Part shown: in pieces, positions 7,572 to 34,394 of the stretch
Position numbering within the stretch: the stretch's first letter is position 1
Layout of the letters: every line of letters starts with the position of its first letter
Assembly: GCA_020523885.1 (NCBI GenBank)
Contig: JAJAPY010000019.1
Location: 586-64,585 of the forward strand
Reading direction: 5' to 3'
DNA from: Candidatus Liberimonas magnetica
GTDB taxonomy: Bacteria > Elusimicrobiota > Endomicrobiia > Endomicrobiales > JAFGIL01
DNA: 64,000 nucleotides
Notes under the pieces: generated by a model
Seen by the model: the letters and a program-made list of their open reading frames with translations, nothing else
The model's database searches: none
What the model was told of the DNA's origin: nothing
Translations under genes and position numbers: made by a program

Positions 7572-8210
7572 ATGAATAAAGGAATATTTATCACGGCAAC
7601 CGATACTGAGGTGGGGAAGACTTACATTTCCTGCCTGCTTGCACAGGAGCTTGTAAAAGGGAAATGTAAAGTCGTAGGAATGAAACCTGTTTCTGCGGGG
7701 TCAAGAGATGACGCAAAAAAGCTTATTAAGGCTTCCGGTGTTAAAGAAAAGATAGAAACAGTAAATCCGCTGTTTTTTAAGTACCCGCTTGCCCCGTATG
7801 CCTCGGCGCTTATTGAGAATAGGAAAATAGACCTGTCTTTGGTCTGGAAAAACTATAAAGAACTTTCAACAAAATATGAGTTTATGATAGTTGAAGGTAT
7901 TGGCGGTTTAATGGTGCCGGTCAAAAAGGATTATTATGTGCTTGATCTGATAAAGGGTTTTAAGCTTCCGGTACTTATAGTTGCAAGGCCGGGCCTTGGG
8001 ACTATCAATCATGTTCTTCTGACCCTAGAGGCACTAAAGAAAGCAGGTGTTAAGGTTTTAGGTATAGTAATTAATGACAAAAAAAGACACAGTCTTTCTG
8101 AAAAAACAAATCCAAAAACATTAAAATCTTTGACCGGGCTTCCTGTCCTTGAAGTCCCGCATAATAAAAAAATAGATTTAAAAAGGAACAAATGGCTGAC
8201 AGGGCAATAA
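7572..8210 (+). CDS. bioD: dethiobiotin synthetase
   Basis: N-terminal TDTEVGKT P-loop, VEGIGGLMVP, about 212 aa; overlaps the bioA start. Confidence 0.85.
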   Translation: MNKGIFITATDTEVGKTYISCLLAQELVKGKCKVVGMKPVSAGSRDDAKKLIKASGVKEKIETVNPLFFKYPLAPYASALIENRKIDLSLVWKNYKELSTKYEFMIVEGIGGLMVPVKKDYYVLDLIKGFKLPVLIVARPGLGTINHVLLTLEALKKAGVKVLGIVINDKKRHSLSEKTNPKTLKSLTGLPVLEVPHNKKIDLKRNKWLTGQ

Positions 8211-9643: not shown

Positions 9644-9685
9644 TGTAGAATGAATACGTAATATTAATATTTTAAGGAGTGAGAA

Positions 9686-13969: not shown

Positions 13970-13972
13970 GCC

Positions 13973-15499
13973 ATGAAAAAAAAGGTTGTATTAATATTTT
14001 TAGGAGTAATATTTAGCTTGGTATTGATTGAAGCAGGCCTGCGCCTGGGCGGTTTTATATATAATTCCAGGCAGGAAATAAGAAACAGGGAAGAGCTGAA
14101 GAAGAAACAGGTTTGCAGAATATTGTGTTTAGGTGAATCAACAACGCAAAAGCAGTATCCGAAATATCTTGAAGAAGAATTAAATAACAGGGATATAGGG
14201 ATTAAGTTCAGCGTGATAGATAAAGGAAGGGCAGGCACTAATACGAACTTTATAGCAGCTAAGCTTGAAGAAGACCTGGATCGGTATAAACCGGATATGA
14301 TAATAACGATGATGGGTATAAATGATGGCAGGGATGATATAGTATTTGAATATGAAAATGGCGGAAGAAAAAGCCTTATAAGATCAATTAAAATATATAA
14401 GCTGGCAAGGTTATTAAAGCTGCATATAAACAGCAAGCTGGCAGAGGTAAATAAAATTAACGATAGCATAGAAAAAACAGATTACAATAATGAAATAATG
14501 TGTGTAAAGAAAGGGCATTATTACATGGACAGGGGAGAATATGAGAAGGCAGAAGAGATGTTTAGAAGAGCACTGGAGTTAAATCCAAAGTCAGTATGGA
14601 ATTATACAATATTAGGAAGCTTGTACAGGGATTTAAATAGAAATGAAGAAGCAGAAAAGATGTACCAAGGAGCGATAAATATAAACCCAAAATATGATCA
14701 GGGGTATTTAGGGTTAGGGGATTGTTTTTTTAAAAAAGGAAAGTATAAAGACGCAGAAGCTATGTATAAGGAAGCACTGGAGTTAAATCCAAAGTCAGTA
14801 TGGAATTACAAAGCCTTAGGAGACTTTTACGAGGATTTAAATAGAAATGAAGAAGCAGAAAAGATATATCAAAGGGCGATACAGATAAACCCTGATAGTG
14901 ATAGGGTATATTTCTGGTTAGGAGATTATTTTTTAGAAAGAGGAAGGTACGAAGAAGCAGAAAAAATGTATAAAAAGTCGATACAAATAAATCCAAAAAA
15001 TGAAATAACATATAAAAAGTTAAGTGACTCTTATAGGAAGCAAAAGAAATATTCAGAATCAATGAAAATATTTGATCAAGGCGTAAAAGTTGAAAAAGTT
15101 ATTCAAGGCAGAGATGATGTTGTAGATGATGAAAAAAAGTTAGTATTAAAAAAACTAGGCAAAGAAAAACCATTCAAATCAAAATATTTCGGGGCGGCTG
15201 CGATATATAACTATAAAAAGTTAAGAAAGATCGTGAAAAAAAGAGGGATAAAGTATGTTTGTGTTCAATACCCAACGCGTAAGTTGGATGATTTAAAATC
15301 AATATTTAAGGAAGATGAAGATATAGTATTTGTGGATAATGAAAAGACATTTAAGGAAGCAGTTAAAGAAGAAGGGTATAATGAATATTTCATAGATAGA
15401 ATGGCTGAAAATTTCGGCCATTGCACGTTAAAAGGCAATAAGCTCTTAGCCAGGAATATAGCTGATGCGATAATAAAGGAGGTTTTTAACAGGCAATAA
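13973..15499 (+). CDS. SGNH-like/TPR paralog 2 of 4
   Basis: Same N- and C-terminal modules as paralog 1 (CLGESTTQ, MMGINDG, ENFGHCTLKGNKLLA) with about 5 TPR units between. Starts 3 nt after paralog 1 ends. Confidence 0.65.
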   Translation: MKKKVVLIFLGVIFSLVLIEAGLRLGGFIYNSRQEIRNREELKKKQVCRILCLGESTTQKQYPKYLEEELNNRDIGIKFSVIDKGRAGTNTNFIAAKLEEDLDRYKPDMIITMMGINDGRDDIVFEYENGGRKSLIRSIKIYKLARLLKLHINSKLAEVNKINDSIEKTDYNNEIMCVKKGHYYMDRGEYEKAEEMFRRALELNPKSVWNYTILGSLYRDLNRNEEAEKMYQGAININPKYDQGYLGLGDCFFKKGKYKDAEAMYKEALELNPKSVWNYKALGDFYEDLNRNEEAEKIYQRAIQINPDSDRVYFWLGDYFLERGRYEEAEKMYKKSIQINPKNEITYKKLSDSYRKQKKYSESMKIFDQGVKVEKVIQGRDDVVDDEKKLVLKKLGKEKPFKSKYFGAAAIYNYKKLRKIVKKRGIKYVCVQYPTRKLDDLKSIFKEDEDIVFVDNEKTFKEAVKEEGYNEYFIDRMAENFGHCTLKGNKLLARNIADAIIKEVFNRQ

Positions 15500-15503
15500 G
15501 AAA

Positions 15504-17543
15504 ATGAGATTAAAAAAGACAGGATTAATATTATTAGGGGTATTGGCAAGTTTGGTATTGCTTGAAACGGGCTTGCGCATAAGCGGGTTTATATACACTT
15601 CAAAACAGGAGCTAAGGAACAAGGAAGAGCTGAATAAGAAAGGGGTATACAGGATACTATGTTTAGGGGAATCGATGACACGAGAGCAGTATCCGAAATA
15701 TCTGGAGGATGAGCTAAATAGCAGAGGTATAGGAATAAAGTTCAGCGTGATAGATAAAGGCAAAGGCGGGGTATTTACAAATTTCATATTAGCAAGTTTA
15801 GAAAACAATTTAGATAAATACAGGCCTGATATGGTAGTAACAATGATGGGGGCAATGGATGGCAGCAGCGATGTGGTATATGAATATGATAAGTCAGGAA
15901 GTTATTATAGGAAGCTGAAGGTATATAAACTGTTTAAGTTAATAAAACTGCACATGAAAAGTAAGCTTGGAGAGATGGAAAAAGCTATAGGAAGGGTGAC
16001 AAAGAAATCCGGTGAAGGTATAAAAGAGTTGAGCTGGGGTAAGTTGTTAAAATGGAAAATTACCGGAAGAGGCGATAATTATAAAGAAACTGATGGCGAA
16101 GCAAAAAAGCCTTCAGAAGTTAGTGTAAGTTATGTGATAAAAGGGCACTTTTACAGGGATAGAAAAGAATATAAAGAAGCAGAAGAGATGTATAAGAAGG
16201 CAATAGAAGCAAGCCCGGATTATGACCAGGGGTATTTGGGGTTAGGGGATTGTTATAGGAACACGGGCAGATATGAAGAAGCAGAACAGGTATATAAGAA
16301 AGCGCTGAAGATAAATCCAAAGTCAGAATGGAATTATGCAGTATTAGGAGATTTATTCAGGGGTTTAAAAAGGCATGAAGAAGCAGAACAGATGTATAAG
16401 AAGTCAGTAGAAGTAAACCCTAATTATGATCATGGATATTTAGGGCTGGGAGATAATTATAGGGATGAGCTAAAATATGAAGAAGCCGGGGAGATGTACA
16501 ATAAAGCTATAGGACTAAATCCGAAAAATGACCAGGGCTATATGGGGTTAGGGGATTGTTATAGGAATGAGCGAAAGTATAAAGAAGCCGAGGAAATGTA
16601 TAGCAAAGCGATGGAGCTGAATCCGAAGAACGAGAGCACATATATAAATTTAGGCAGTTGTTACAGCCGGGAAGGAAAGTATAAGGAAGCTGAGAAGGTT
16701 TTTAAAAAAGCGATGAAACTGAACCCGAAAAATGCTGATACGTATATTAGCCTAGGAGATAGCTATAGAGATGGGCAGAAATATAAAAAAGCAGATGAGA
16801 TGTACAGGAAAGCGGTTGAGCTAGATCCAAAGAACGAAAGCGCATATGGGAGTATCGGGGATCGTTATATGGATGAGCGAAAGTATAAGGAAGCTGAAGA
16901 AGTTTTTAAAAAGATTTTAGAAATAGTTCCTAAAAGCGAATGGGCCTACAGCAATTTAGCCACTATTTACTGGAATCAACGTAAGTTTAAAGAAACCGAA
17001 GAAGTATATAAAAAAATGTTAGAAATAAACCCGGCACAGAGGGATGCTTTCTACGGCCTTTCTGTCCTTTATGAAGCACAAAATAAATATAAACAGGCAG
17101 AGAAGATGTTAAAAGAAGGTGCGAAACCGGAAGAAGATGATAAAAGATCAGATGAAAACATAAATGTGACAATTGATGACGATATGGGGATGAAGCATCA
17201 GGTAATAAAAGAAAAAAGCAGGTCGTTATATTTTGGTTCAGGAACAGTATATAATTATAAAGCGCTGAGGATGATATTAAAGAAAAGAGGGGTAACGTAT
17301 GTATGCGTTCAATACCCTAGGCGGAAAGTGGAAGATATGAAAGATATATTTAATTATGACAAAGATATGATATATGTAGACAATGAAAAGACATTTAAGG
17401 AAGCAATGAAGAAAGAGGGGTATGATAAATATTTCAAGGACAGGACTTGTGGCGAATTTGGCCATTGCACGGTAAAAGGCAATAAGCTCCTGGCCAAGAA
17501 CATAGCCGATGCGATAATGAAGGAAGTATTTAAGAGGCAATAA
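15504..17543 (+). CDS. SGNH-like/TPR paralog 3 of 4 (longest, most diverged flanks)
   Basis: CLGESMTRE, MMGAMDG, about 11 TPR units with consensus YKEAEEMYKKAxELNPKN, C-terminal GEFGHCTVKGNKLLA. Confidence 0.65.
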   Translation: MRLKKTGLILLGVLASLVLLETGLRISGFIYTSKQELRNKEELNKKGVYRILCLGESMTREQYPKYLEDELNSRGIGIKFSVIDKGKGGVFTNFILASLENNLDKYRPDMVVTMMGAMDGSSDVVYEYDKSGSYYRKLKVYKLFKLIKLHMKSKLGEMEKAIGRVTKKSGEGIKELSWGKLLKWKITGRGDNYKETDGEAKKPSEVSVSYVIKGHFYRDRKEYKEAEEMYKKAIEASPDYDQGYLGLGDCYRNTGRYEEAEQVYKKALKINPKSEWNYAVLGDLFRGLKRHEEAEQMYKKSVEVNPNYDHGYLGLGDNYRDELKYEEAGEMYNKAIGLNPKNDQGYMGLGDCYRNERKYKEAEEMYSKAMELNPKNESTYINLGSCYSREGKYKEAEKVFKKAMKLNPKNADTYISLGDSYRDGQKYKKADEMYRKAVELDPKNESAYGSIGDRYMDERKYKEAEEVFKKILEIVPKSEWAYSNLATIYWNQRKFKETEEVYKKMLEINPAQRDAFYGLSVLYEAQNKYKQAEKMLKEGAKPEEDDKRSDENINVTIDDDMGMKHQVIKEKSRSLYFGSGTVYNYKALRMILKKRGVTYVCVQYPRRKVEDMKDIFNYDKDMIYVDNEKTFKEAMKKEGYDKYFKDRTCGEFGHCTVKGNKLLAKNIADAIMKEVFKRQ

Positions 17544-17548
17544 AAGAC

Positions 17549-19486
17549 TTGAGATTAAAAAAAGCAGGTTTAATATTACTCGGAATATTGGCAAGCATGA
17601 TATTGCTTGAAATAGGAATGCGCCTGGGCGGTTTTATATATAATTCCAGGCAGGAGATAAGGAACAGAGAGGAACTGAAGAAGAAACAGGTTTACAGAAT
17701 ATTGTGTTTAGGTGAATCAACAACGCAAGAGCAGTATCCGAAATATCTTGAAGAAGTATTAAATAACAGGGATATAGGGATAAAATTCAGCGTGATAGAT
17801 AAAGGAAGATTCGGCACTAATACGAACTTTATAGCAGCTAAGCTTGAAGAAGACTTGGATAAATATAGACCCGATATGGTAATAACGATGATGGGTGTAA
17901 ACGATGCCAGGGACGATATAATATTTGAATATGCAGATGACGGAAGAAGGAGCCTTATTAAATCAATTAAAATATATAAACTGGCAAGGTTGTTAAGGCT
18001 GCATATAAAGAGTAAGATAGAAGAATTAAAAATGGGAAAAGGAAGGATAAAGCAGAATATAATAGAAATAGTAAAAGAATTAAATAGTAAAAAGCGAATA
18101 GAAAGAGCAGGAAAGGAAGGACGAAATAATATAACAAAGACATCTTCGGATAATGGAGTAATATATGCTGAGAAAGGCGATGATTACAGAAATAAGCAAG
18201 AATATGAGAAAGCAGAAGAGATGTACAAAAGAGCGATAGAGCTAAACCCCGATTACGATCAAGAGTATTTTGGATTAGGGCATTGTTACGAGGTTGCAGG
18301 AAGGTATGAAGAAGCTGAAGAGATGTATGAGAAAGCACTAAAACTAAACCCAAAATCACTCTGGAATAATAAAGACCTGGGATTTTTTTATTTAAATTTA
18401 AAGAGGTTTGAAGAAGCAGAAGAAATGTTTAAAAAGGCGATAGAGATATATCCTAAGAATGCTCAAGTATATTCTGATTTAGGGAATTGCTATAAAGTGG
18501 AAGGAAAATATGAAGAGGCGGAGAAAGAATATAAAAAAGCGGAAACAATGTTTCAGAAAGTTCTATTAGCAAATCCTAAAGAAGAAGAGGCATGTTTTGG
18601 ATTAGGGGATTGTTACATGGACACAGCTAGGTACAAAGAAGCAGAAGAGATATATAAAAGAGCGATACAGCTGAACCTTAATTTTTATAAGGGGTATGCA
18701 AGGCTGGGGGAATGTTACTATCACATGCGCAAATACAAAAAATCAGAAGAGATGTATAAAAGAGCGATAGTTTTGAACCCTGATTATTATAAGTCGTATT
18801 TAGGGCTGGGGGAATGTTTCGATACCACGCAGAAATGCAAAGAAGCAGAAAAGATATATAAAAGAGCAATAGAAGTTGACTCTAAAAAATATCAGGGGTA
18901 TTTCTACCTGGGAAATTGTTATAAGGATCAAGGAAGATATGAAGAAGCAAAGGAAGAATTAAAAAAATCCATAGAAATAAACCCAAATAATAAAATGACA
19001 CATGTAAGGCTATACGAAACTTATAAGGCACAAAAGAAGTATAAGGAATCAATGGAAATACTTAATCGAATCATGGCGCTTGAAAAAAATAGCCAAGGCA
19101 GATATAAAGTTACAGATGATAAGATAAATATAGTTATAAAAAAACTGAACAATGAAGGGCAGATCAATTCACAGTATTTCGGAGTAGCTACTATATACAA
19201 CTATAAAAGGTTAAGGAAGATTTTAAAGAAAAGAGGGGTAAAATACGTTTGTGTTCAATATCCTATGCGGGAAGTGGATGATTTAAAATTAATATTTAAG
19301 GAAGAAAAAGACATAATATTTGTTGACAATAAAAGAGTATTTAAAGAAGCAATTAACAAACAAGGGTATAATGAATATTTCAGGGATAGAATTGATGAAA
19401 AATTCGGCCATTGCACGATAAAAGGCAATAAGCTCTTAGCCGAAAACATAGCTGATACAATAATTAGGGAAGTGCTTAATAAGTAA
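17549..19486 (+). CDS. SGNH-like/TPR paralog 4 of 4 (TTG start)
   Basis: Its 5' module is nearly identical at nucleotide level to paralog 1. CLGESTTQE, MMGVNDA, about 9-10 TPR units, C-terminal EKFGHCTIKGNKLLA. Confidence 0.65.
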   Translation: MRLKKAGLILLGILASMILLEIGMRLGGFIYNSRQEIRNREELKKKQVYRILCLGESTTQEQYPKYLEEVLNNRDIGIKFSVIDKGRFGTNTNFIAAKLEEDLDKYRPDMVITMMGVNDARDDIIFEYADDGRRSLIKSIKIYKLARLLRLHIKSKIEELKMGKGRIKQNIIEIVKELNSKKRIERAGKEGRNNITKTSSDNGVIYAEKGDDYRNKQEYEKAEEMYKRAIELNPDYDQEYFGLGHCYEVAGRYEEAEEMYEKALKLNPKSLWNNKDLGFFYLNLKRFEEAEEMFKKAIEIYPKNAQVYSDLGNCYKVEGKYEEAEKEYKKAETMFQKVLLANPKEEEACFGLGDCYMDTARYKEAEEIYKRAIQLNLNFYKGYARLGECYYHMRKYKKSEEMYKRAIVLNPDYYKSYLGLGECFDTTQKCKEAEKIYKRAIEVDSKKYQGYFYLGNCYKDQGRYEEAKEELKKSIEINPNNKMTHVRLYETYKAQKKYKESMEILNRIMALEKNSQGRYKVTDDKINIVIKKLNNEGQINSQYFGVATIYNYKRLRKILKKRGVKYVCVQYPMREVDDLKLIFKEEKDIIFVDNKRVFKEAINKQGYNEYFRDRIDEKFGHCTIKGNKLLAENIADTIIREVLNK

Positions 19487-24583: not shown

Positions 24584-27529
24584 ATGGTTAAAAAAACAAT
24601 AGAAAAAGATAATATAAAAGAGATAGTTGAAGGCTTAAACAACGCACAAAAAGAAGCTGTGGAGCATTCTCAAGGGCCACTTCTTATAATCGCAGGCGCA
24701 GGTACCGGAAAAACCCGGGTCATAACAAGGAAAATAGCATATTTAATATCTACTAAAAAGGCAAAACCCTCCGAGATACTTGCCTTAACTTTTACGGACA
24801 AAGCAGCGACCGAGATGGAAGAACGGGTTGACCTCTTAGTGCCTTACGGGTTCAATGACGTATGGATATCCACGTTCCACGCGTTCGGGGACAGGGTCTT
24901 AAGAGAAAATGCCATAGAAATAGGCCTTTCACCGGATTTTACCATATTAAACCAGCAGGAAGCAGCGGTATTTTTCAAAGACAACCTGTTTTCTTTTGAG
25001 ATGAATTATTTCAGGCCTCTTGGAAATCCGAGCCAATATATAAATGCGCTCTTAACCGCGTTCAGTCGAGCAAAAGATGAAAATATCGGCCCAAAAGAAT
25101 ACCTGTCTTATGCAAAGAACAAAATAGCAGGCGCCAATAGCCCGGAAGAAAAAGAAGAAGCCCAGAAAAACATGGAAGTTGCCCTGGCTTATGAAAAGTA
25201 TGAAGAGTTAAAAAAGAAAAATAATTATCTTGATTTTGGCGACCAGGTGATTTTAGCGTTTAACCTTCTTAAAGAGCACCCGTCCTTGTTAAAGAAATAC
25301 CAGAATAAGTTCAAATATATCCTTGTGGACGAGTTCCAGGACACGAACTATACCCAGTTTGAGCTTGTAAAGCTTCTTGCCAAAGAACATAGAAATATAA
25401 CCGTAGTAGGAGACGACGACCAGTCTATTTATAAATTCCGCGGCGCCTGCCTTTCAAATATCCTGGGATTTAATAAAGCCTACAAAGATGCTAAACAAGT
25501 GGTTTTACGCCAGAATTACCGCTCAACTCAAGGGATATTGAACTCAGCATACAAACTTATCACCCAGAACAACCCCGAACGGCTTGAGGTAAAAAATAAG
25601 ATAAATAAAGAGCTTGTTTCAACCCGGCTTGAAGGCCCGGCTGTCGAGCATCTATATTTTGACACTCTTTCCACGGAAGCTGATGAAACGGCAAAAAGGA
25701 TAAAGGAAAAAGTTGAAAGCGGGAAATTTTCCTGGAAGGACTTTGCTATCCTTGTCCGGTCTAACGCTTCTGCAGAACCTTTTTTAAAATCTTTGAACTA
25801 TTTAAATATCCCGTGGAAATTTTCCGGCCAGGCAGGTTTATATAAACGCGAAGAGATAAGGCTTCTTCTTTCTTTTTTACGGGTAATGGCAAACCCGAAC
25901 GACTCTTTGAGCCTGCACTATTTTTCTTCAAGCGATCTCTATGATTTTGACCCTATCGATATCTCTACAGTTAACCACACGGCTTCGTATTACGGCCGCT
26001 CTATGATGGACGTGCTTAGGAATTTAGGACAGTACAAAGAGTTGTCGAGCCTAGCGGATAAAACAAAAAGCGGGATAAGTAAACTGTTGAATGACCTGGA
26101 AGAATATTACAAGATAGCTCAAAGTTCAAGAACAGGCGAGCTGTTATACAAGTTCCTTAAAAGAACTAAGATCCTTGAGCGGTTGTACAACTCAACATCT
26201 TATCTTGAAGTCGAGCAGGCGCAGAACATCGCAAAATTCTTTAAGATAATCGAGCGTTTTGGCAACATTGTATCCTATGACAGGGTCAATGCTTTTGTCG
26301 ACTATATAGATTCACTTTTATTCGTGGGCGACGACCCTACGGTAGATGAGCCGGACTTTGACCTTGATGCTGTAAACGTGCTTACCATTCATAAGGCAAA
26401 GGGCTTAGAATTTTCCGTGGTATTTATGGTGTCTCTTGTAGAAGACAGGTTCCCCTCAAGGAATAAAAGAGATTTGATAGAGCTTCCGGATGAGCTGATA
26501 AAGGATATCCTGCCGCAGGGAGATTTTCATCTCCAGGAAGAAAGGCGGCTTTTTTATGTAGGGATGACGCGCTCAAAAGACGAGCTCTACCTGACAAGCG
26601 CCCGGGATTACGGCGGAAAGCGCGCAAAAAAGGTTTCCCGTTTTGTCCTGGAAGCACTTGATAAGCCGAAAGCTGATGAAGAGGTTTTTAAATCAAGCAT
26701 CAAAGAACAGCTGGAACGGTTTGCTCCGGTAGAGCGAAAAATAGATTTTTCAAGCATTTTACCAAAAGACCAGGGGACACTGAAACTTTCCCCCTATGCC
26801 ATAGATGATTATCTTACCTGTCCGTTAAAATATAAGTATGTCCATGTCCTGCGGGTGCCTATTTTAAGGCACCATTTGCTTATTTACGGCGAAGTTATCC
26901 ATAAGGTTTTAAAGGAGTATTACAAGCAAAGAAAAGAAAACAAAAAATTCACTAAAGACGACCTCGTAGAGCTTTACAAAAAGTTCTGGTCGTCAGCCGG
27001 GTTTTTGTCCAGGGAACACGAAGAAGAACGTTTCAGGAGCGGGCAAGAAATGCTTGTAAATTATTTTAACGAGGAACAAAAAAGGGACTTCGTCCCTTTA
27101 TCCGTAGAGGAAGACTTTAAATTCATGCTTGATGATTCCGTTAAGGTTCTCGGCCGTTGGGACAGGCTTGATGAAAGGCTTGAGGAAGGAAATAAAATAA
27201 GGGTCATTGTAGATTTTAAGACAACCGCCAGGATAAAAGACCAGAAATCAGCAGATAAAGAGATAAAACAGAGCGGCCAGCTCTTAATCTACGCGCTGGG
27301 CCATAAAATGAAGTACGGAAAACTCCCTGATTATGTCGAACTCCATTTCTTAGAGCCAAACATTATTTCAAAACTAAAACCAGAAGATAAGGATATCGAT
27401 GAATTGAAAGAAAAGATAAAAACCGTAGCCTGCGGTATAAAAGCCCAGAACTTTACAGCCGAACCATCCTATATGGCATGCCAGTACTGCGCCTATTCCA
27501 ATATTTGCCCAAAACAGGAAAATAATTAA
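24584..27529 (+). CDS. UvrD/PcrA-type SF1 helicase fused to a C-terminal RecB/Cas4-like PD-(D/E)XK nuclease with Fe-S cysteines
   Basis: AGAGTGKT, VDEFQDTN, QNYRST and YVGMTRSK are helicase motifs. The C-terminus has GRWDRLD, VIVDFKT and QLLIYALG, plus Cys in YLTCPLKY and CQYCAYSNIC (C...Cx2Cx5C). Confidence 0.8.
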   Translation: MVKKTIEKDNIKEIVEGLNNAQKEAVEHSQGPLLIIAGAGTGKTRVITRKIAYLISTKKAKPSEILALTFTDKAATEMEERVDLLVPYGFNDVWISTFHAFGDRVLRENAIEIGLSPDFTILNQQEAAVFFKDNLFSFEMNYFRPLGNPSQYINALLTAFSRAKDENIGPKEYLSYAKNKIAGANSPEEKEEAQKNMEVALAYEKYEELKKKNNYLDFGDQVILAFNLLKEHPSLLKKYQNKFKYILVDEFQDTNYTQFELVKLLAKEHRNITVVGDDDQSIYKFRGACLSNILGFNKAYKDAKQVVLRQNYRSTQGILNSAYKLITQNNPERLEVKNKINKELVSTRLEGPAVEHLYFDTLSTEADETAKRIKEKVESGKFSWKDFAILVRSNASAEPFLKSLNYLNIPWKFSGQAGLYKREEIRLLLSFLRVMANPNDSLSLHYFSSSDLYDFDPIDISTVNHTASYYGRSMMDVLRNLGQYKELSSLADKTKSGISKLLNDLEEYYKIAQSSRTGELLYKFLKRTKILERLYNSTSYLEVEQAQNIAKFFKIIERFGNIVSYDRVNAFVDYIDSLLFVGDDPTVDEPDFDLDAVNVLTIHKAKGLEFSVVFMVSLVEDRFPSRNKRDLIELPDELIKDILPQGDFHLQEERRLFYVGMTRSKDELYLTSARDYGGKRAKKVSRFVLEALDKPKADEEVFKSSIKEQLERFAPVERKIDFSSILPKDQGTLKLSPYAIDDYLTCPLKYKYVHVLRVPILRHHLLIYGEVIHKVLKEYYKQRKENKKFTKDDLVELYKKFWSSAGFLSREHEEERFRSGQEMLVNYFNEEQKRDFVPLSVEEDFKFMLDDSVKVLGRWDRLDERLEEGNKIRVIVDFKTTARIKDQKSADKEIKQSGQLLIYALGHKMKYGKLPDYVELHFLEPNIISKLKPEDKDIDELKEKIKTVACGIKAQNFTAEPSYMACQYCAYSNICPKQENN

Positions 27530-27769: not shown

Positions 27770-28267
27770 ATGAATGACAAACAAAAGTTAAAACTTATTC
27801 TCATAACAGGTCTTGTTTGCACCGCTCTTGGCGGATGGCTCCTGCATTTACGAATTCACACCATTCAAAGCAATCCATCAAACTATCTTCCATTTTTATC
27901 GGGCATATTCAGCATAATAATTCTGCCGTTAATGTTCTATTTCAGGCCAACAGTTACCTATGCCTATATCCTAAACGGAATGACCGTAATAATAGGCACT
28001 ATAACAATGGCGCATTTTTCGATAGCCAACCTGCCGCCGGAAATAACCTTAGGTACTATTATTTTAAGAACAACATTCGCAGACATAATGCTTCTTTTTA
28101 CAAAACTTTTTATAGGAAAAGCCATATTCGACCTCAACACTTATAACCCCGAAGGAAGTTCCACCATAAAAGGCAGGTTTTTCAGGTATCCGAATATGGG
28201 TTTCTGGTGGGTGCATTTGTTTGCCATGTCCGTCGTTTACACTCTCGGACATGTTTTGTGGAGGTAA
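27770..28267 (+). CDS. polytopic membrane protein, unknown function
   Basis: 165 aa with about 5 hydrophobic helices. The C-terminal helix is FFRYPNMGFWWVHLFAMSVVYTLGHVLWR. Confidence 0.55.
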   Translation: MNDKQKLKLILITGLVCTALGGWLLHLRIHTIQSNPSNYLPFLSGIFSIIILPLMFYFRPTVTYAYILNGMTVIIGTITMAHFSIANLPPEITLGTIILRTTFADIMLLFTKLFIGKAIFDLNTYNPEGSSTIKGRFFRYPNMGFWWVHLFAMSVVYTLGHVLWR

Positions 28268-28270
28268 TAA

Positions 28271-28366
28271 ATGTTCAGGTTCATGCTTTTTAAACCCGGC
28301 TGGTGGATACTGCATATACTTATGATAATTTTCATGTTCTGGCTCGGGCATGTAATAAGGTTTTAA
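28271..28366 (+). CDS. 31-aa single-helix membrane peptide (not in the ORF track)
   Basis: MFRFMLFKPGWWILHILMIIFMFWLGHVIRF starts 1 nt after the TAATAA of the upstream gene. It repeats that gene's last helix (FRx..GWW.H...LGHV). Confidence 0.5.
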   Translation: MFRFMLFKPGWWILHILMIIFMFWLGHVIRF

Positions 28367-28443
28367 CATATAAGTAAGGTACTTGCTTCCGAGATTACTA
28401 AGGAAAGATAGTATACTTAGTGAAGCTTGATGATATGGCTGAC

Positions 28444-28459
28444 ACCATATGGTATAAAT
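28444..28459. promoter_or_regulatory. palindrome ACCATATGGT fused to TATAAAT upstream of the STAND gene
   Basis: accatatggtataaat equals the right arm of the MNT operator (accataaacatggtataaat) minus 4 nt. TGGTATAAA resembles an extended -10 element. It ends 24 nt before the STAND ATG at 28483. Confidence 0.45.
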
Positions 28460-28482
28460 TATTTGTTTGAAAGTGAGGGAAA

Positions 28483-31140
28483 ATGAAGATAATTGAACTA
28501 ATGAAACAAAGAATTCAAGATGAAGGTAATGATTCAGATTTTACAAGATTCTATAATAATATGTTATATGGTGAAATGGTAATAAAATGGATTGTTTGTG
28601 GTATTGCGGCAGGAATTGAAGATGATGTAGATAGAAATCAATATCAGATTTACTACAATCTAATACGCTCAAATGCAATCGGTGACTGGGTAACTAATCT
28701 AGAGAAGATATTGCAACAGCTGCCTTCTCAATATCTAATTGAAGAGGTAAAAATAAAAGAAAGGAAGGAATTAACAGAAAAAGTTGGAAGTGGAAAATGG
28801 CAGTATGAAATGGCTTTGTCTATATTTCAGTGTTTGAATTCCTTAGATGAAAGCACGGACAATTTGCCAACTAAAGTAGATGCATTAGAGTGGTTTAGAA
28901 GATTTGTAACATTAAGAAATAAATTTAGGGGTCATGGGGCACAGAGAGGGGCTAAATGTGCTGAGTTGTGTGAAATGTTAGAAAACTCTATTGATATTCT
29001 AGTAAACAACTTCATATTGTTTAAACGACCATGCGTATTTTTATACAGAAATCTATCAAAAAAATATAGGGTGTCTCAAATTTCAGAAAGTAATGATTAC
29101 TTTGAGAGCTTAAAAACTGAAGAAGGAAAAAAATGTAATTATGAAGATGGTATTTTTATAGCTTTTGGTACAGATATAAATATTATCAAATTAGTAGAAT
29201 CCGATGCTGATCTAAGTGATTTCTATTTTTCAAATGGGCAATATAATGACAAAAATTGTGATTATGAGATGCTTTCTTATATAACAGGAAATAAAATAAG
29301 AAATATCGATAATTTTTATACTGTACCTATTGAAACGCTCCCAAAAAGTGAAACATCAAGTATGGGTGAGTTAGATGTATTTCATAATAATGTGTTTTCA
29401 AATATTCCAACACAAAGACCTGGCTATATCAAGCGTTTAGAGTTGGAAAATCAACTAAAAGAGCAATTATTATTAACAGAAAGACATCCAATAATAACGT
29501 TACAAGGTAAGGGAGGGATTGGAAAGACAACTCTTGCATTACAAGTGCTACACGAGATTGCGCAAAGCCCTTATATACCTTACAAGATGATAATATGGCT
29601 GAGTGCAAGAGATATTGATTTGACTTCAGAAGGACCAAAAGCTGTTAAGCCTGATGTGATTTCAAAAAAGCAATTTTCAAAAGAATATGCACTTTTAGTT
29701 TTGGGAAAGAATAAAGCTAAAGGGATGAATTATGAGGAATATTTTTCTTCACAATTAAGCAAGGGGGCATTGGGCCCAACTCTTTTTATATTTGACAATT
29801 TTGAAACAGTAGAAAATCCATTTGATGTGTTTAAATATCTTGATTCTTTTATTAGACTACCTAATAAAATATTGATTACTACTAGAATAAGAGATTTTAA
29901 AGCAGATTATCCTTTAATAGTGTCAGGAATGACAAAGAATGAAAGCTTCCAGTTAATTGAAAATATAAGTAATGAAATTGGATTAAGTCAATTATTGCAC
30001 GAAGAATATAAGCTTGAGTTATATAAAGAATCAGGGGGACATCCATATATTATAAAAATACTTTTAGGGGAATGTGCTAAGAAAAAACAATTAGTTAAAC
30101 CAGATATAGTATTACAAGATTTAGACAAGCTATTAGATGCTCTGTTTGAAAGAAGTTATATAAATCTATCAAAAGCTGCCCAAAGAATATTTTTACTTCT
30201 TTGTTCTTGGAAGTCCGCAATACCTGAAATCGCACTGGAGTTAGCGATGTTGTCTGCTAGAGAGAAAATAGATGTTTCAGAAACTCTTAATGAGCTTGTT
30301 AATAGTTCTTTTATTGAAGAAGAAGTTTCAGAAAATGACAATTTTTATTATGCTCCTTTAGCAGCATTAACTTTTGGTAAAAGAAAATTGAAGGTAAGCT
30401 CTTTGAAGGCAATTGTTGAAGTAGATTCAATCTTTCTTCAGAAATTTGGAGTAACGAAGAGCGCTGAAATTAAAAAAGGGATTCTTCCTAAAATCAATAG
30501 ATTTGTTAGAAAAGTGGCTGAAGAAATAAGTAGTGGGACAACTAGTCTGGCTGCGCATAAAAATAATTTTGACTATATTGCTTCAAAAGTGCCCCAAGCT
30601 TGGCTAAGCATCGCAAAATTATATAAAGAACAAGATAATTTAGATAATGCAATTGAAACTACTAGGAAATATCTAGAAAGAGAAGATGGAGAAGAAGGTA
30701 AGCTAAAGGCATGGGAAGAATTAACTAAATTATATGAATTAAAGAAAGATTACAAAAATGAATTGCTAACACTTGTCGAAATATCGCAAAACAGAAAGTT
30801 GCAATTGTATGATTTGTCCAATATTGTAAATAGAATAATTATTTTATGCAAAACGCTAAAGGATTTAGACCGAACCTCAGCTTTTGAGGTAGAGGAAAAG
30901 AAGTTGATGTTAAAAAAAGTTATAACTGTAATAGAGTTAAGAGATGATGAGCTTGATCCTACAGACTGTTCGCGAGTAGCATGGTTATTCTTAAATATTG
31001 GCGATACTAAAAAAGCATTAGATTATGCAAAAAAAGGCTTAGACATCGATAAGGCAAATTATTATTGTAGAAGTCTTATTGAGCGTATTGATAAAGAATA
31101 TAGGGGGCGAACGAGAAAAGGTGACAAAGTTGTAGAGTAG
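28483..31140 (+). CDS. STAND NTPase of NB-ARC/AP-ATPase type with unassigned N-terminal domain and C-terminal helical repeats
   Basis: P-loop GKGGIGKTTLA, Walker B LFIFDNFE, ILITTR, and GGHPYII (GLPL-like). The first 330 aa or so are unassigned. Much more AT-rich than its neighbours (15/60 G+C at 28483-28542 against 27/60 at 26401-26460, hand counts). Confidence 0.8.
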   Translation: MKIIELMKQRIQDEGNDSDFTRFYNNMLYGEMVIKWIVCGIAAGIEDDVDRNQYQIYYNLIRSNAIGDWVTNLEKILQQLPSQYLIEEVKIKERKELTEKVGSGKWQYEMALSIFQCLNSLDESTDNLPTKVDALEWFRRFVTLRNKFRGHGAQRGAKCAELCEMLENSIDILVNNFILFKRPCVFLYRNLSKKYRVSQISESNDYFESLKTEEGKKCNYEDGIFIAFGTDINIIKLVESDADLSDFYFSNGQYNDKNCDYEMLSYITGNKIRNIDNFYTVPIETLPKSETSSMGELDVFHNNVFSNIPTQRPGYIKRLELENQLKEQLLLTERHPIITLQGKGGIGKTTLALQVLHEIAQSPYIPYKMIIWLSARDIDLTSEGPKAVKPDVISKKQFSKEYALLVLGKNKAKGMNYEEYFSSQLSKGALGPTLFIFDNFETVENPFDVFKYLDSFIRLPNKILITTRIRDFKADYPLIVSGMTKNESFQLIENISNEIGLSQLLHEEYKLELYKESGGHPYIIKILLGECAKKKQLVKPDIVLQDLDKLLDALFERSYINLSKAAQRIFLLLCSWKSAIPEIALELAMLSAREKIDVSETLNELVNSSFIEEEVSENDNFYYAPLAALTFGKRKLKVSSLKAIVEVDSIFLQKFGVTKSAEIKKGILPKINRFVRKVAEEISSGTTSLAAHKNNFDYIASKVPQAWLSIAKLYKEQDNLDNAIETTRKYLEREDGEEGKLKAWEELTKLYELKKDYKNELLTLVEISQNRKLQLYDLSNIVNRIIILCKTLKDLDRTSAFEVEEKKLMLKKVITVIELRDDELDPTDCSRVAWLFLNIGDTKKALDYAKKGLDIDKANYYCRSLIERIDKEYRGRTRKGDKVVE

Positions 31141-31154
31141 GGGAACGGAGAGGG

Positions 31155-31189
31155 ACGTTGTTTGATAATACGATATTGAAAAGGATTAT
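31155..31189 (+). repeat. shared module M2, copy 2
   Basis: acgttgtttgataatacgatattGaaaagGattat, 33 of 35 identical to 7435-7469; starts 15 nt after the STAND stop. Confidence 0.75.
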
Positions 31190-31258
31190 GCGTTAAAATC
31201 CAAATAAGTAATGGTGCCAGGCATGACTTATGTGACTTATTGGATGTTCGGTGTCAGG

Positions 31259-31307
31259 CCCTCCTTCGCTAAAGCTACGGAAGGACACAGCTTGCCTAAT
31301 AACTCTT
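31259..31307 (+). repeat. shared module M4 (hairpin followed by GGACACAGCTT..TAATAAYT), copy 1
   Basis: tccttc-gctaaagctacg-gaagga-cacagcttgcctaataactc. Related copies lie at 32957-33000 and 35286-35332. Confidence 0.6.
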
Positions 31308-31352
31308 ACACGGATTCAGTTGATGCTCCACACCCTTTCAGCAATGTGTGAC

Positions 31353-31378
31353 GCCAACATCCACTTCCGCAATGGATG
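31353..31378 (+). repeat. shared module M5 (gccaacatcca..aatggatg hairpin), copy 1
   Basis: gccaacatccaCtTccgCaatggatg, 23 of 26 identical to 33415-33440. Stem is catcca/tggatg. Confidence 0.65.
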
Positions 31379-31578
31379 CCGGCCATCCGACTGTTTGAAT
31401 GCCTGTGCCTGGCTTGACTAAATGAACCAATGAATTACTAGAGATTGCGGCCGTGTCTATAAAAGTCACGATAGTTAGTGCAATTGAAAAAGTAATTTGG
31501 ATTTATTAAAAGGCCTTATCTATCACGACGCGATTTTTATCTGATTGTTAAATTAAGTATCAAGTATTAAAAATATTA

Positions 31579-31607
31579 TTGACATCTTACCATGTTTATG
31601 GTATATT
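31579..31607 (+). promoter_or_regulatory. sigma70-like promoter of the MNT-HEPN operon
   Basis: TTGACA (31579-31584), exact 17-bp spacer, TATATT (31602-31607). Confidence 0.6.
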
Positions 31608-31625
31608 TATACCATAAACATGGTA
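31588..31625. promoter_or_regulatory. perfect 18+2+18 bp palindrome (candidate operator) across the -10 element
   Basis: taccatgtttatggtata tt tataccataaacatggta. Each arm itself contains ACCAT-N4-ATGGT. Confidence 0.65.
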
Positions 31626-31644
31626 TAAATAGGATGTAGGGAAA

Positions 31645-32193
31645 ATGATATTTAATCTTCGTTCTAAAATCACCAGGAAAATACTTAATTTTTTCTTTCT
31701 AAACGATAAATCCAGGGTTTACGTTAATGAAATAGCCCGCCAGATCGAAGAAGAACCAAAGAATGTGTATAGGATATTAATCCGCCTTGAGGACTCAGGA
31801 ATACTAACCAGTGAGTTTTCGGGGCGTGAAAGGTATTTTACGGCAAACTTAAAAAGCAGCCTCTTAAAAGAATATAAAACCATTTTCATGAAAACTTCGG
31901 GTATTGAATCAATGCTAAAAAAAGCAGTAACGAAAAGACCTGAAATAAAAGAAGCTTTTATTTATGGGTCCTATGCAAGCGGGAAATATAAGCCGGGAAG
32001 CGATATTGACCTCTTGCTGGTAGGCAATCACAAAAGCATGGATGCTCAAAAAATGATTTTTGACCTGCAAAAAACGTCAGGCAGTGAGATAAATGTCATT
32101 AATATTACCCCTGAAAACTTTAATAATAAAAAAACGGAAAAGGACCAGTTGATATCTTCTATTTTTTCCGGGAAAGTAATAAAACTATTATGA
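31645..32193 (+). CDS. winged-HTH fused to a minimal nucleotidyltransferase (MNT-type antitoxin-like)
   Basis: N-terminal wHTH-like segment VYVNEIARQIEEEPKNVYRILIRLEDSGIL, then NTase signature GSYASGKYKPGSDIDLLLVG. The stop overlaps the next ATG (ATGA). Confidence 0.7.
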   Translation: MIFNLRSKITRKILNFFFLNDKSRVYVNEIARQIEEEPKNVYRILIRLEDSGILTSEFSGRERYFTANLKSSLLKEYKTIFMKTSGIESMLKKAVTKRPEIKEAFIYGSYASGKYKPGSDIDLLLVGNHKSMDAQKMIFDLQKTSGSEINVINITPENFNNKKTEKDQLISSIFSGKVIKLL

Positions 32194-32576
32194 AATTTGA
32201 CAAAAATCATTTTATTGAGCAGAAATTTACACCTAATGAGCTTGAAAAGATACGGAAATCTGCCAAACGAAACATGGAGTTAGCAGGCTCAAGCAGTGCC
32301 CCTGAAATAATTTTTCATTTCTCATACATGGCTCTTATAAAAATTGGTATTTACTGTATAGCCAAAGAAGGATACAGGGTTAAAAGTCGGCCTGGCCACC
32401 ATGTAAAAATAATTGAAGCTCTTAGCCAAATCTTGGGATCAAAAGATATTTTGATTGCCGGAGATAAAATGCGCAAAGACAGGAATATCGATCTTTATAG
32501 CGGGGATGCCGTAATTGACGTGAAAGAAGCCGAAGAGTATTATGAAATAGTTAAGCAGTTTGTTAATACAATCTAA
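32190..32576 (+). CDS. HEPN-domain protein (toxin-like partner of MNT)
   Basis: 128 aa, predicted helical, MRKDRNIDLYSGD matches my recollection of the HEPN R-N-x-x-x-Y/H region. 4-nt overlap with the NTase gene. Confidence 0.55.
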   Translation: MKFDKNHFIEQKFTPNELEKIRKSAKRNMELAGSSSAPEIIFHFSYMALIKIGIYCIAKEGYRVKSRPGHHVKIIEALSQILGSKDILIAGDKMRKDRNIDLYSGDAVIDVKEAEEYYEIVKQFVNTI

Positions 32577-32624
32577 AGTTGTCGTTACCCGTCTAAAATC
32601 AGTGCGGAAATAGCGGCCTAATTG

Positions 32625-32654
32625 CGTGTCAGGCTTTACTTGCTTTACTTATTC
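32625..32654 (-). repeat. shared module M3, inverted copy
   Basis: The reverse complement gaataagtaaagcaagtaaagcctgacacg matches 5762-5790. Confidence 0.6.
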
Positions 32655-32674
32655 AGGGCTCGAATAGGGAAATT

Positions 32675-32923
32675 ATGACTAAACTTGAAATAAAATATCC
32701 TTGCGAATGGAGTTACACCGTTATCGGTGCGGATGAGGGCTTACTGCGGGGTGCGATAGCCGAAGTCTTTTGCGGCAAGGAACATAGTATGGAGTTTTCA
32801 AAAAAGAGTAAGGCTGGAAAATACATTTCACTCATCACCAAAACAAAAGTAACCGATGAAGATGAGCGGGTTAAGCTATGCAATTTGTTGAGCAAGCATC
32901 CGGCAATAAAAATGGTTTTGTAA
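32675..32923 (+). CDS. DUF493/YbeD-like small protein
   Basis: 82 aa: YPCEWSYTVIG...SKAGKYISLITKTKV...IKMVL fits the YbeD family pattern. Confidence 0.65.
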   Translation: MTKLEIKYPCEWSYTVIGADEGLLRGAIAEVFCGKEHSMEFSKKSKAGKYISLITKTKVTDEDERVKLCNLLSKHPAIKMVL

Positions 32924-32956
32924 ACAAAATATTAAAAGGAATTCGGGGGACACACA

Positions 32957-33000
32957 CCCCTTCTACGCTGAAGCTACGAAGGGCACAGCTTAATAATTTT
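32957..33000 (+). repeat. shared module M4, copy 2
   Basis: cccttc-tacgctgaagctac-gaaggg-cacagcttaataatttt. The stem base pair differs from copy 1 in a compensatory way (t-a becomes c-g). Confidence 0.6.
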
Positions 33001-33035
33001 GAAAACAAGCATTTTAATTCAGGAAAAATAAGGTT

Positions 33036-33413
33036 ATGATAAAAAAGAAAAAATCACCATTGATTGCGGCTTTGCTGTCGGCTTTTGCGTTTCCTGGACT
33101 CGGGCAGGTGTATGCGAAGTGCTATGCCAAAGGCTTGATATTCATCGTTATAACTATGATACTCTTCATTTCCATCGCCGTGCCTCTAATTACAATTGCC
33201 TCATCGTATGCTTCTGAAATGGCAAACTTAGAATCCATGAGCCCATCTAAATTCACCATGCCAAATGATGGCAGGATAAAATGGTTTTCCATTCTTCTGA
33301 CCGTTGCATGGATTATTTCCATAGTTGACGCCTGGTCCTGCGCAAAAAGATTGAACAAGCAAATAAGTATATCAGCTTCAGTTGATGTCCCTCCCCCTCC
33401 CGGCAAGGCATGA
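33036..33413 (+). CDS. small membrane protein, unknown function
   Basis: 125 aa with FPGLGQVY motif, 3 hydrophobic segments and a Pro-rich tail. Confidence 0.5.
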   Translation: MIKKKKSPLIAALLSAFAFPGLGQVYAKCYAKGLIFIVITMILFISIAVPLITIASSYASEMANLESMSPSKFTMPNDGRIKWFSILLTVAWIISIVDAWSCAKRLNKQISISASVDVPPPPGKA

Positions 33414-33414
33414 T

Positions 33415-33440
33415 GCCAACATCCATTCCCGTAATGGATG
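33415..33440 (+). repeat. shared module M5, copy 2
   Basis: gccaacatccaTtCccgTaatggatg starts 2 nt after the TGA of the upstream gene. Confidence 0.65.
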
Positions 33441-33614
33441 TCTTCCCTACATACTACCTACTGATGCGCCTATTTGACTTTTAGAGGGGCAATTGATAAA
33501 ATTACTTTACATATCTTGATCCGCTATTTATTGTCGCGACAAATAGATATTTACAATTTAAAGAACCCTGAAGCGTAGGACCGTCGGGGCAACAATTTAC
33601 TAAGGAGTTATAAA

Positions 33615-34394
33615 ATGGATTTAGCTACCATTGCAGGTGTTCTGGTCGGAGTGGCACTGGTATTAGCCTCTATTTTGTTAACAGAAGGAGTGAAGGGATT
33701 TATCCCGTTCTTAAATTACGAAGCATTCATGGTAGTTATGGGCGGAACGTTCTGCGCCCTTCTTGTTAACTATCCTATACAACAGGTTTTAAGGATGTTT
33801 AAGGTGACAAGGGTCGTCATGACATCGACCGGCGAAGACACTACCAAGATAGTAACGACTTTTGTAACCCTGGCAAAAAAATCTAAGCAAGGCGGGTTCC
33901 TTTCGCTGGAAGGCGATATAAAGAACCTTGATAACGATTTTTTAAAACGAGGCGTCCAAATGGTAGTTGACGGTTTGGAAAAAGAGTTTATAGCTAACAT
34001 GTTGGAGACCGAACTGGGGTTTATCAAGGAAAGGCATAAAGTAGGGATAGAAATGTTCAATGCTCTTGGCACTTATGCACCGGCATTCGGCATCATAGGG
34101 ACGGTACTTGGAATGATACTTATGTTGAACTCAATAACAAACGTTGAAGAAGTACCAAGAAGAATGGCTTTTGCTCTTGCAGCAGCATTTTTCGGTCTTG
34201 GCTCCGGATACTTGTTATTTCTTCCCATGGCAGGAAAACTCAGACGGCGTTCTGACGAAGAACTTTTGATAAAGGAAATCATTATACGCGGGGTCCTTCT
34301 TCTTCAGGCAGGTACGACACCCAGCATACTTGAAGAGAACTTGAAAGCTTATCTGGAACCTTCTCAAAGAGCTTTGATCAATGCGGCAAGATAA
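33615..34394 (+). CDS. motA: flagellar-type stator protein MotA (MotA/TolQ/ExbB family)
   Basis: 259 aa, 4 TM helices, YAPAFGIIGTVLGMI and FLPMAGKL regions; followed by motB and flbD. Confidence 0.8.
   Translation: MDLATIAGVLVGVALVLASILLTEGVKGFIPFLNYEAFMVVMGGTFCALLVNYPIQQVLRMFKVTRVVMTSTGEDTTKIVTTFVTLAKKSKQGGFLSLEGDIKNLDNDFLKRGVQMVVDGLEKEFIANMLETELGFIKERHKVGIEMFNALGTYAPAFGIIGTVLGMILMLNSITNVEEVPRRMAFALAAAFFGLGSGYLLFLPMAGKLRRRSDEELLIKEIIIRGVLLLQAGTTPSILEENLKAYLEPSQRALINAAR

Follow-up and report, generated by a model that had tools for sequence, protein, structure and literature searches.

A near-invariant R-N-x4-H motif and a predicted four-helix bundle suggest a divergent HEPN-like effector in an NB-ARC STAND protein of Candidatus Liberimonas magnetica

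A 64,000-nucleotide stretch of contig JAJAPY010000019.1 from Candidatus Liberimonas magnetica (assembly GCA_020523885.1, positions 586 to 64,585), hereafter called the window, contains an open reading frame (28483..31140, + strand) for a single-chain STAND protein of 885 amino acids (aa), and this locus raises the question of what the N-terminal part of that protein is and does. An earlier reading, based on the sequence alone, had recognised no domain in aa 1-341, ahead of the P-loop, and had pointed to an R-N-x4-H-G motif resembling that of HEPN RNases of the Abi_C type. Its coordinates for the motif and the P-loop were all exact when checked on the open reading frame, and the lack of a recognisable domain was borne out, with no Pfam, NCBIfam or PADLOC match at E<=1 and only noise from PHROGs and PDB. 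The answer favoured here, with some reserve, takes the N-terminal helical domain for an RNase of the HEPN superfamily, though a highly divergent one, which would act as the effector of an Avs-like antiviral STAND protein. The parts of the gene are the following.

28483..31140, + strand: whole gene, in the order HEPN-like helical domain, beta domain, linker, NB-ARC NTPase, TPR-like sensor.
28483..29031, + strand: helical domain, aa 1-183, proposed as a divergent HEPN RNase (AlphaFold2 model with DSSP, coevolutionary couplings).
28573..28587, + strand: E31-x3-K35 motif in core helix 2 (conservation, helix aa 19-42).
28609..28884, + strand: helical stretch of about 90 aa (aa 43-134), inserted between core helices 2 and 3 (DSSP).
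28915..28938, + strand: R145-N146-K-F-R-G-H151-G152, the R-N-x4-H-G motif, proposed catalytic site (conservation, DSSP).
29032..29307, + strand: beta-rich domain, aa 184-275, no family match (DSSP strands).
29308..29436, + strand: linker, aa 276-318, carrying L-P-x-S-E-T (alignments, conservation table).
29437..30402, + strand: NB-ARC/AP-ATPase STAND NTPase module, aa 319 to about 640 (Pfam NB-ARC, Foldseek, invariant columns).
30460..31122, + strand: C-terminal all-alpha TPR-like repeats, aa ~660-880, presumed ligand sensor (weak TPR matches, AlphaFold2 helices).

HEPN domains are four-helix up-down bundles made of two alpha-hairpins, with juxtaposed N- and C-termini and frequent inserts between helices 2 and 3 (PMC3710099). 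They carry two signatures. One is an Rx4-6H motif with a polar residue (N, D or H) directly after the arginine, located where core helix 3 gives way to the loop before helix 4; the other is an acidic residue of helix 2, usually within Ex3[KR], proximal to the first motif (PMC3710099). Those with the full motif have been argued to be active, metal-independent RNases, and some other HEPN domains are non-catalytic binders (PMC3710099).

Both signatures are found in the STAND protein. The first lies within TLRNKFRGHGAQRG (aa 143-156), where R145 (codon 28915-28917) is followed directly by the polar N146 (28918-28920) and, at a spacing of 5, inside the 4-6 range, by H151 (28933-28935) and then G152 (28936-28938); it is the sole R-x4-6-H anywhere in the 885-aa protein, and the family consensus around it reads F-A-x-L-R-N-K-T-R-G-H-G-A. 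The second is E31-x3-K35, located in the second helix (aa 19-42). Conservation was counted on an alignment of 326 family members guided by a hidden Markov model (HMM), with an overall identity of about 35-44%: R145 is kept in 326/326 sequences, N146 and H151 in 325/326 each and G152 in 317/326, while E31 is present in 319/319 and K35 in 320/322. Within aa 1-183 the only polar or charged residues conserved to at least 99% are E31, K35, R145, N146 and H151. The near-invariance of the R-N-x4-H motif across the family argues that it is functional and did not arise by chance; the sequence-only reading had staked its proposal on the conservation of these R, N and H residues among homologues, and this is what the alignment returned.

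The predicted structure was obtained with AlphaFold2 on aa 1-321, using a 120-sequence alignment; the model has a mean predicted local distance difference test (pLDDT) of 93.8 and a predicted TM-score (pTM) of 0.87, and is composed of a helical domain (aa 1-181), a beta-rich domain (aa 184-275) and a lower-confidence linker. DSSP assigns the core helices to aa 2-15 (H1), 19-42 (H2), 135-150 (H8) and 156-176 (H9), those of the aa 43-134 insert to aa 52-61, 66-78, 80-84, 87-98 and 106-121, and a last helix to aa 178-181. E31 and K35 sit in H2; helix 135-150 bears R145 and N146 at its C-terminal end, and H151 opens the loop 151-155 that leads to helix 156-176. In the full-length AlphaFold2 model (pLDDT 88.8) the motif helix is 135-149 and the placement of the motif is the same, so both models have it at the end of the third core helix and the start of the following loop, as in HEPN domains.

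Contacts independent of the model coordinates were derived by mean-field direct coupling analysis (DCA) of the 326 sequences (effective number, Meff, 281; 41,328 pairs). Top-ranked couplings outline an antiparallel H1-H2 hairpin (15-22, 14-25, 11-29, 7-32), an antiparallel H8-H9 hairpin (137-169, 138-173, 134-173, 141-166) and antiparallel packing of H1 on H9 (8-171, 8-174, 15-167); H2 packs antiparallel to H8 (30-141, rank 9 of 41,328, together with 34-138 and 34-141), its contacts with H9 are parallel, and no H1-H8 coupling was found among the 41,328 pairs, the best one ranking 1007. Some confidence in the DCA comes from the beta-strand pairings that it recovers (188-222, 186-240, 246-265, 263-274), because these match the DSSP strands. 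The couplings and the DSSP helices support, for the core of aa 1-183, an up-down-up-down four-helix bundle of two alpha-hairpins with juxtaposed termini and the 90-aa insert between helices 2 and 3, thus a HEPN-like topology and insert position, as read from DCA and DSSP and not from inspected coordinates. In addition, the 30-141 and 34-138/141 couplings would set E31/K35 alongside the turn of helix 3 that bears R145. Membership in the HEPN superfamily is therefore supported, at the level of sequence and model, by every motif and topology feature that defines it, and not by any alignment statistic: the resemblance consists in the two signatures, the helix placement and the bundle topology, and does not extend to a measurable alignment to a HEPN family.

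Several observations weigh against the assignment to HEPN. The R-to-H spacing is 5, where 4 is typical and some families have 6, and at 90 aa the insert is longer than those described in HEPN domains, which reach 60 aa; convergence in an unrelated helical fold can also produce a short motif pair, and the closeness in space of E31/K35 to R145/H151 is deduced from couplings of neighbouring residues only. No profile or structure search gave a statistically significant link to any recognised HEPN family. At E<=10, Pfam matches neither the native sequence nor the family consensus nor sub-fragments, and 40 chimeric core-only sequences, built by deletion of the 90-aa insert, had no HEPN match in Pfam, PADLOC or PHROGs, even at E<=10; NCBIfam, PADLOC and PHROGs offered neither HEPN nor any other consistent family for the N-terminus. 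PDB sequences, searched with the single sequence, a whole-family profile and a core-only profile, gave no N-terminal match, and the sole match to the core was discarded as a zinc-finger artefact (E 4.1). Foldseek with the pLDDT-94 model against PDB and BFVD reached a best E of 0.46, with TM-scores <=0.18. Finally, hhalign alignment of the core with the HEPN nuclease pEK499_p136, taken singly and in an alignment of 28 sequences from a metagenome scan, gave a probability of 0.14-0.16%, a comparison that carries little information, since the reference profile is shallow (75-100% identical) and its HEPN family a distant one; the alignment with a small open reading frame adjoining a nucleotidyltransferase gene of the window, described below, fell within the same range.

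HEPN families are mutually very divergent and undetectable to one another by sequence, and Foldseek is poorly served by a small bundle that a 90-aa insert interrupts; for both reasons these negatives are weak evidence against HEPN and not a refutation. The 2013 study of the superfamily relied, for its part, on HHpred at 75-98% probability combined with motif inspection (PMC3710099). No search among Pfam, NCBIfam, PADLOC, PHROGs, PDB and Foldseek put the domain in a non-HEPN family; such a placement would have told against the initial proposal. The narrower attribution to the Abi_C type is not supported, as PF14355 matches neither the native sequence (E<=1) nor the family consensus nor the 40 insert-deleted cores (E<=10).

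The beta-rich domain that follows the bundle has invariant residues of its own (G223, N251-G252, S265-Y266), its consensus finds no match in Pfam, and it coevolves with the motif loop (154-269, 147-269, 150-245 and 147-253 by DCA); it may gate the catalytic site or aid RNA binding. In the linker, modelled at lower confidence (pLDDT 73-82), the L-P-x-S-E-T motif occupies aa 286-291 (29338-29355), with S289 and T291 about 98% conserved, and might serve as a site of modification or as a strand that docks on the NB-ARC module.

There is a small but real chance of a wider departure from known systems, in which the helical-plus-beta module would be a new effector fold, or a HEPN derivative remodelled into a new family, with a composite site built with or gated by the beta domain, in a new phylum-spanning NB-ARC Avs family whose short, unusually conserved TPR sensor answers a single highly conserved trigger and which has another RNA target or chemistry. 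The stricter form, an effector enzyme of a new, non-HEPN fold using E31, K35, R145, N146 and H151, and perhaps N251 and S265, in other nuclease chemistry or in nucleotide/NAD+ hydrolysis, appears improbable. It would account for a confident model without structural neighbours in PDB or BFVD, for the missing profile matches to the many HEPN families of Pfam and PADLOC, for the atypical Rx5H spacing and for the tight coupling of the beta domain to the motif loop, which suggests a composite two-domain site, unlike a simple HEPN. However, the missing matches lose much of their meaning when HEPN families do not detect each other by sequence and Foldseek is weak on bundles split by such an insert, and the five invariant residues make up both HEPN signatures, in the helices where these are expected and, for R-N-x4-H, at the expected helix-loop junction. 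Moreover, the four helices that carry them follow the HEPN up-down topology (PMC3710099).

Beyond the linker, the protein is a bona fide NB-ARC/AP-ATPase STAND protein with TPR-like repeats. Pfam NB-ARC (PF00931) matches aa 323-538 with E 2.6e-11 and 43.7 bits, against a cut-off of 23.5 bits, and the GKGGIGKT (Walker A, aa 342-349, 29506-29529), FDNFET and ITTR (TTR, aa 466-468) motifs are invariant or nearly so in the family alignments. The Walker-B region, D438-N-F-E441 (29794-29805), lies within the invariant F-D-N-F-E-T; NB-ARC proteins usually carry a second acidic residue at the position where this family has an Asn. E441, two residues on, might substitute for it, and the Asn may mean slow or absent ATP hydrolysis. 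Foldseek with the full-length model found 6MFV (E 1.4e-10), Apaf-1 (7e-9), CED-4 (1e-8) and plant NLR resistosomes (5e-8 to 1e-6), with matches limited to aa ~320-885. The C-terminal ~220 aa form helical repeats in the AlphaFold2 model, with W707, W744 and W834 invariant in a 45-sequence alignment and sub-threshold Pfam matches to TPR at aa 705-733 and 829-859.

A search with the full-length protein finds 763 homologues at E<=1e-3, and the best 120 of them are 38-44% identical over 93-99% of the length, nearly all being 830-930 aa long. A word-index search with the N-terminus alone returned nothing, a sensitivity artefact, since an exhaustive phmmer search with aa 1-321 retrieved 511 cluster representatives; among the 150 listed of these 511 matches the N-terminal domain occurs in a single architecture or in fragments of it. 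Odd or longer matches (P0257, P0148, P0203 and others) were considered as other architectures and rejected, all being the same NB-ARC family or chimeric calls. Relatives are present in 324 of 185,579 species (0.17%, one genome per species) from more than 20 phyla, including Acidobacteriota, Bacteroidota, Chloroflexota, Myxococcota, Planctomycetota and Patescibacteria, and further groups such as Pseudomonadota, Actinomycetota, Verrucomicrobiota, WOR-3 and Cloacimonadota, at 35-43% identity to the query; the distribution is sparse and horizontally spread. The domain was not found in the phage collection, and in the plasmid collection it occurs only on Ralstonia solanacearum megaplasmids, in an unannotated stretch.

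Defence association was assessed from inspected loci and neighbour counts, not from a formal enrichment statistic. The commonest neighbours are type I restriction-modification (R-M) methylase and specificity genes, directly upstream on the same strand in 5 + 3 of 67 loci, while Vsr, integrase and resolvase each recur in 2-3 of the 67. Two loci come from metagenomic homologues: in one (L152, gene at 8001-10589) the gene lies inside the operon HsdM-HsdS-[gene]-HsdR, with gaps of 56 and 23 bp, and in the other (L153, gene at 8001-10598) the order is R-M, KwaA/KwaB (Kiwa), the gene and an AbiJ_NTD3 ABC ATPase. Elsewhere R-M genes stand directly upstream (L002), Schlafen/AlbA_2 and SNIPE/T5orf172 genes adjoin it (L001, Jeotgalibacillus), toxin-antitoxin genes and transposases flank it (L154) or a transposase precedes it (L151); two loci (L004, L155) have ordinary housekeeping or metabolic neighbours. 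Thus the gene is often within R-M or defence islands, a context that fits a mobile single-gene defence system; stand-alone HEPN genes, too, are reported inserted inside R-M operons. In the window, positions 28001-32000, which cover the STAND gene and the adjoining intergenic region, have a GC content of 0.325-0.343 against 0.40-0.45 on both sides, suggesting a horizontally acquired islet; positions 32001-34000, over a toxin-antitoxin pair, are at 0.396, still below the flanks.

No conserved neighbour gene was found across the 67 genome loci, and the effector therefore has to lie in cis. Avs proteins have the same tripartite organisation of effector, NTPase and sensor (PMC13581612), and HEPN is among the effector classes recognised in bacterial NACHT/STAND proteins (PMC8195603). 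The N-terminal domain is probably the cell-killing effector of a widespread single-gene anti-phage system: the effector position that had been suggested for it agrees with this architecture and with the lack of a partner, and the activity itself is a prediction.

The N-terminal domain might instead be non-catalytic, with a regulatory, ligand- or nucleic-acid-binding or oligomerisation function, for example as one of the inactive HEPN-like binders that exist (PMC3710099), and the output might be that the trigger is sequestered or that unlinked genes receive a signal. The conserved residues would then stabilise the rest state or recognise a signal in the form of a nucleotide or RNA, and autoinhibition or docking would be consistent with the conservation of the beta domain and the LPxSET linker, which equals that of the motif; however, the protein holds no other candidate effector and the 67 loci no partner gene, and this alternative is quite unlikely. 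A housekeeping or regulatory STAND protein of the MalT, AfsR or SARP kind, with an output such as DNA binding at the N-terminus, is very unlikely: the NTPase region has weak NCBIfam similarity to AfsR and FxSxx-TPR, and the metabolic neighbours of L004 and L155 would suit such a function, but Pfam finds no HTH or BTAD domain in the N-terminus, the distribution is patchy across phyla with a flat level of identity, and the gene resides inside type I R-M operons, beside Kiwa, Schlafen, SNIPE and toxin-antitoxin genes and transposases, and in a low-GC island in the window. All-alpha N-terminal adaptors are common in bacterial STAND conflict systems (PMC8195603), but an effector-associated or Death-like adaptor that recruits a separately encoded effector by homotypic contact is barely credible here and was rejected for lack of a partner gene, since it needs a partner with the same domain where the listed matches show one architecture only, no neighbouring gene family beyond R-M subunits recurs, and an invariant E/K/R/N/H set is not a normal feature of adaptors.

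If the N-terminal domain is a HEPN RNase, as preferred here, the following mechanism can be proposed. At rest the protein would be a monomer with an inactive HEPN domain and an incomplete site, because HEPN sites are formed by two R-x4-6-H motifs across a dimer interface; a further restraint may come from the adjoining beta domain, which has coevolved with the catalytic loop. The TPR-like sensor would bind a trigger, most likely a conserved phage protein, upon which the NB-ARC module would bind ATP and oligomerise. We infer that activation is driven by dimerisation: oligomerisation would pair the N-terminal domains and assemble the E31/K35/R145/N146/H151 site, which would cut RNA of the cell and/or the virus in a metal-independent way and leave 2',3'-cyclic phosphate ends, so that translation would halt and infection abort.

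Proteins of this general kind have been described before. Fusions of an N-terminal HEPN domain to a STAND ATPase and TPR, with or without S1/CSP, were predicted in 2013 in the Swt1/Abi2 clade (Npun_F6454, MED222_16016, Desac_1927 and B. cereus gi 229028907) (PMC3710099). They share with the present family the module order HEPN-STAND-TPR, an Rx4-6H motif with its polar residue and the predicted role as suicidal RNases (PMC3710099); conversely, Rx5H, the 90-aa insert, the extra beta domain and the absence of S1/CSP set this family apart, the comparison being one of descriptions only, and the Swt1-like HEPN family of Pfam has no match to it at E<=10. Avs1-5 and Avs7-21 also combine effector, STAND NTPase and TPR-like sensor in one chain and show defence-island location and horizontal spread (PMC13581612). 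Activation would be expected to follow oligomerisation induced by a trigger, as for Avs proteins. The NTPase of this family is NB-ARC/AP-ATPase-like, with no Avs structure among the 50 listed Foldseek matches and no Avs match in PADLOC v2, only a P-loop-level one to TRIP13 (E 0.009); the family is unusually uniform in length and sequence in comparison with Avs. The sensor, of ~220 aa (aa 660-880), is below the 400-aa cut-off of the Avs survey (PMC13581612).

Other relatives by function share fewer modules. Abi_C/AbiJ proteins (PF14355) are, like this family, linked to abortive infection and R-M loci. They presumably have a motif of the R-N...H-G style as well. AbiJ HEPN domains are placed C-terminal to AbiJ-NTD (PMC3710099), whereas here the domain is N-terminal to the STAND NTPase. 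DARNA/PD-T7-3, which cleaves tRNA and forms HEPN dimers in higher oligomers, has an N-terminal HEPN RNase with a bipartite site and acts by abortive infection (bioRxiv 10.64898/2026.02.22.705581), and the HEPN-DUF499 ATPases of BREX-related/Hma systems join an N-terminal HEPN to an NTPase module (PMC12839542). Both have the canonical Rx4H and differ in their C-terminal modules, DARNA/PD-T7-3 sensing single-stranded DNA/SSB and HEPN-DUF499 having an AAA+ ATPase with methyltransferase and helicase partners, and PADLOC detected no sequence similarity to either. As for the other modules, 6MFV also consists of an NB-ARC NTPase, winged-helix/helical domains and a TPR sensor; Apaf-1, CED-4 and plant NLR proteins have the NB-ARC and winged-helix/helical domains as here, but what all these proteins carry at the N-terminus (CARD, CC, TIR or none) bears no relation to the helical-plus-beta module.

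The surroundings of the gene in the window have further features. Upstream, a gene at 24584-27529 (+ strand), about 1 kb from the STAND gene, encodes a 981-aa UvrD-family helicase with a C-terminal PD-(D/E)XK nuclease (AddA/Cas4-like), and between the two lies a 165-aa membrane open reading frame without Pfam match (27770-28267). Downstream, a 500-bp non-coding gap (31141-31644), part of which has a higher GC content than its surroundings, contains no listed open reading frame of at least 60 aa and no Rfam match at the gathering threshold. It is followed, on the + strand, by an MNT nucleotidyltransferase gene (NTP_transf_2, E 5e-13), whose product has an N-terminal region resembling a helix-turn-helix; this gene overlaps by 4 bp a 128-aa open reading frame that lacks a Pfam match and has 'RKDRNIDLY' at the place where a HEPN Rx4H would be, and 31645-32576 is a probable MNT/HEPN-type toxin-antitoxin pair. 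Upstream of the MNT gene, within 31579-31623, there is a strong sigma-70-like site, TTGACA-17-TATATT with TG, whose -10 box is overlapped by a perfect 16-bp inverted repeat, CCATGTTTATGGTATA (31590-31605) and TATACCATAAACATGG (31608-31623), likely an autoregulatory operator.

Farther away, 12422-19486 (+ strand) holds four tandem paralogues (515, 508, 679 and 645 aa) with an N-terminal GDSL/SGNH-lipase-like region and many TPRs, in DNA with a GC content of 0.33-0.37, a GC skew of 0.29-0.41 and an AT skew of about 0.26; another gene, at 62029-63411, is TPR-only. Among the genes of at least 200 aa in the window, 36 of 37 are on the + strand, and no tRNA genes or Rfam matches are present within its 64 kb.

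The kind of protein has been known since 2013, as a HEPN fused to STAND-TPR, and the gain is incremental and not conceptual; nevertheless, this family, with its Rx5H motif, 90-aa insert and accessory beta domain, is unmatched by current profile libraries, and PDB and BFVD hold no structural neighbour of its N-terminal module. With an HMM of aa 1-300 these genes could be labelled. If the proposed reading is correct, an NB-ARC switch of the Apaf-1/plant-NLR type would be paired with an RNase effector that PADLOC, Pfam and NCBIfam do not see, and the protein would be a clean system in which to follow how STAND oligomerisation assembles a HEPN site; the uniform, conserved sensor suggests one conserved trigger. 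The family would then add to the NLR-like repertoire of Bacteria an uncharacterised family of single-gene immune receptors, found in the genomes of about 324 species from more than 20 phyla.

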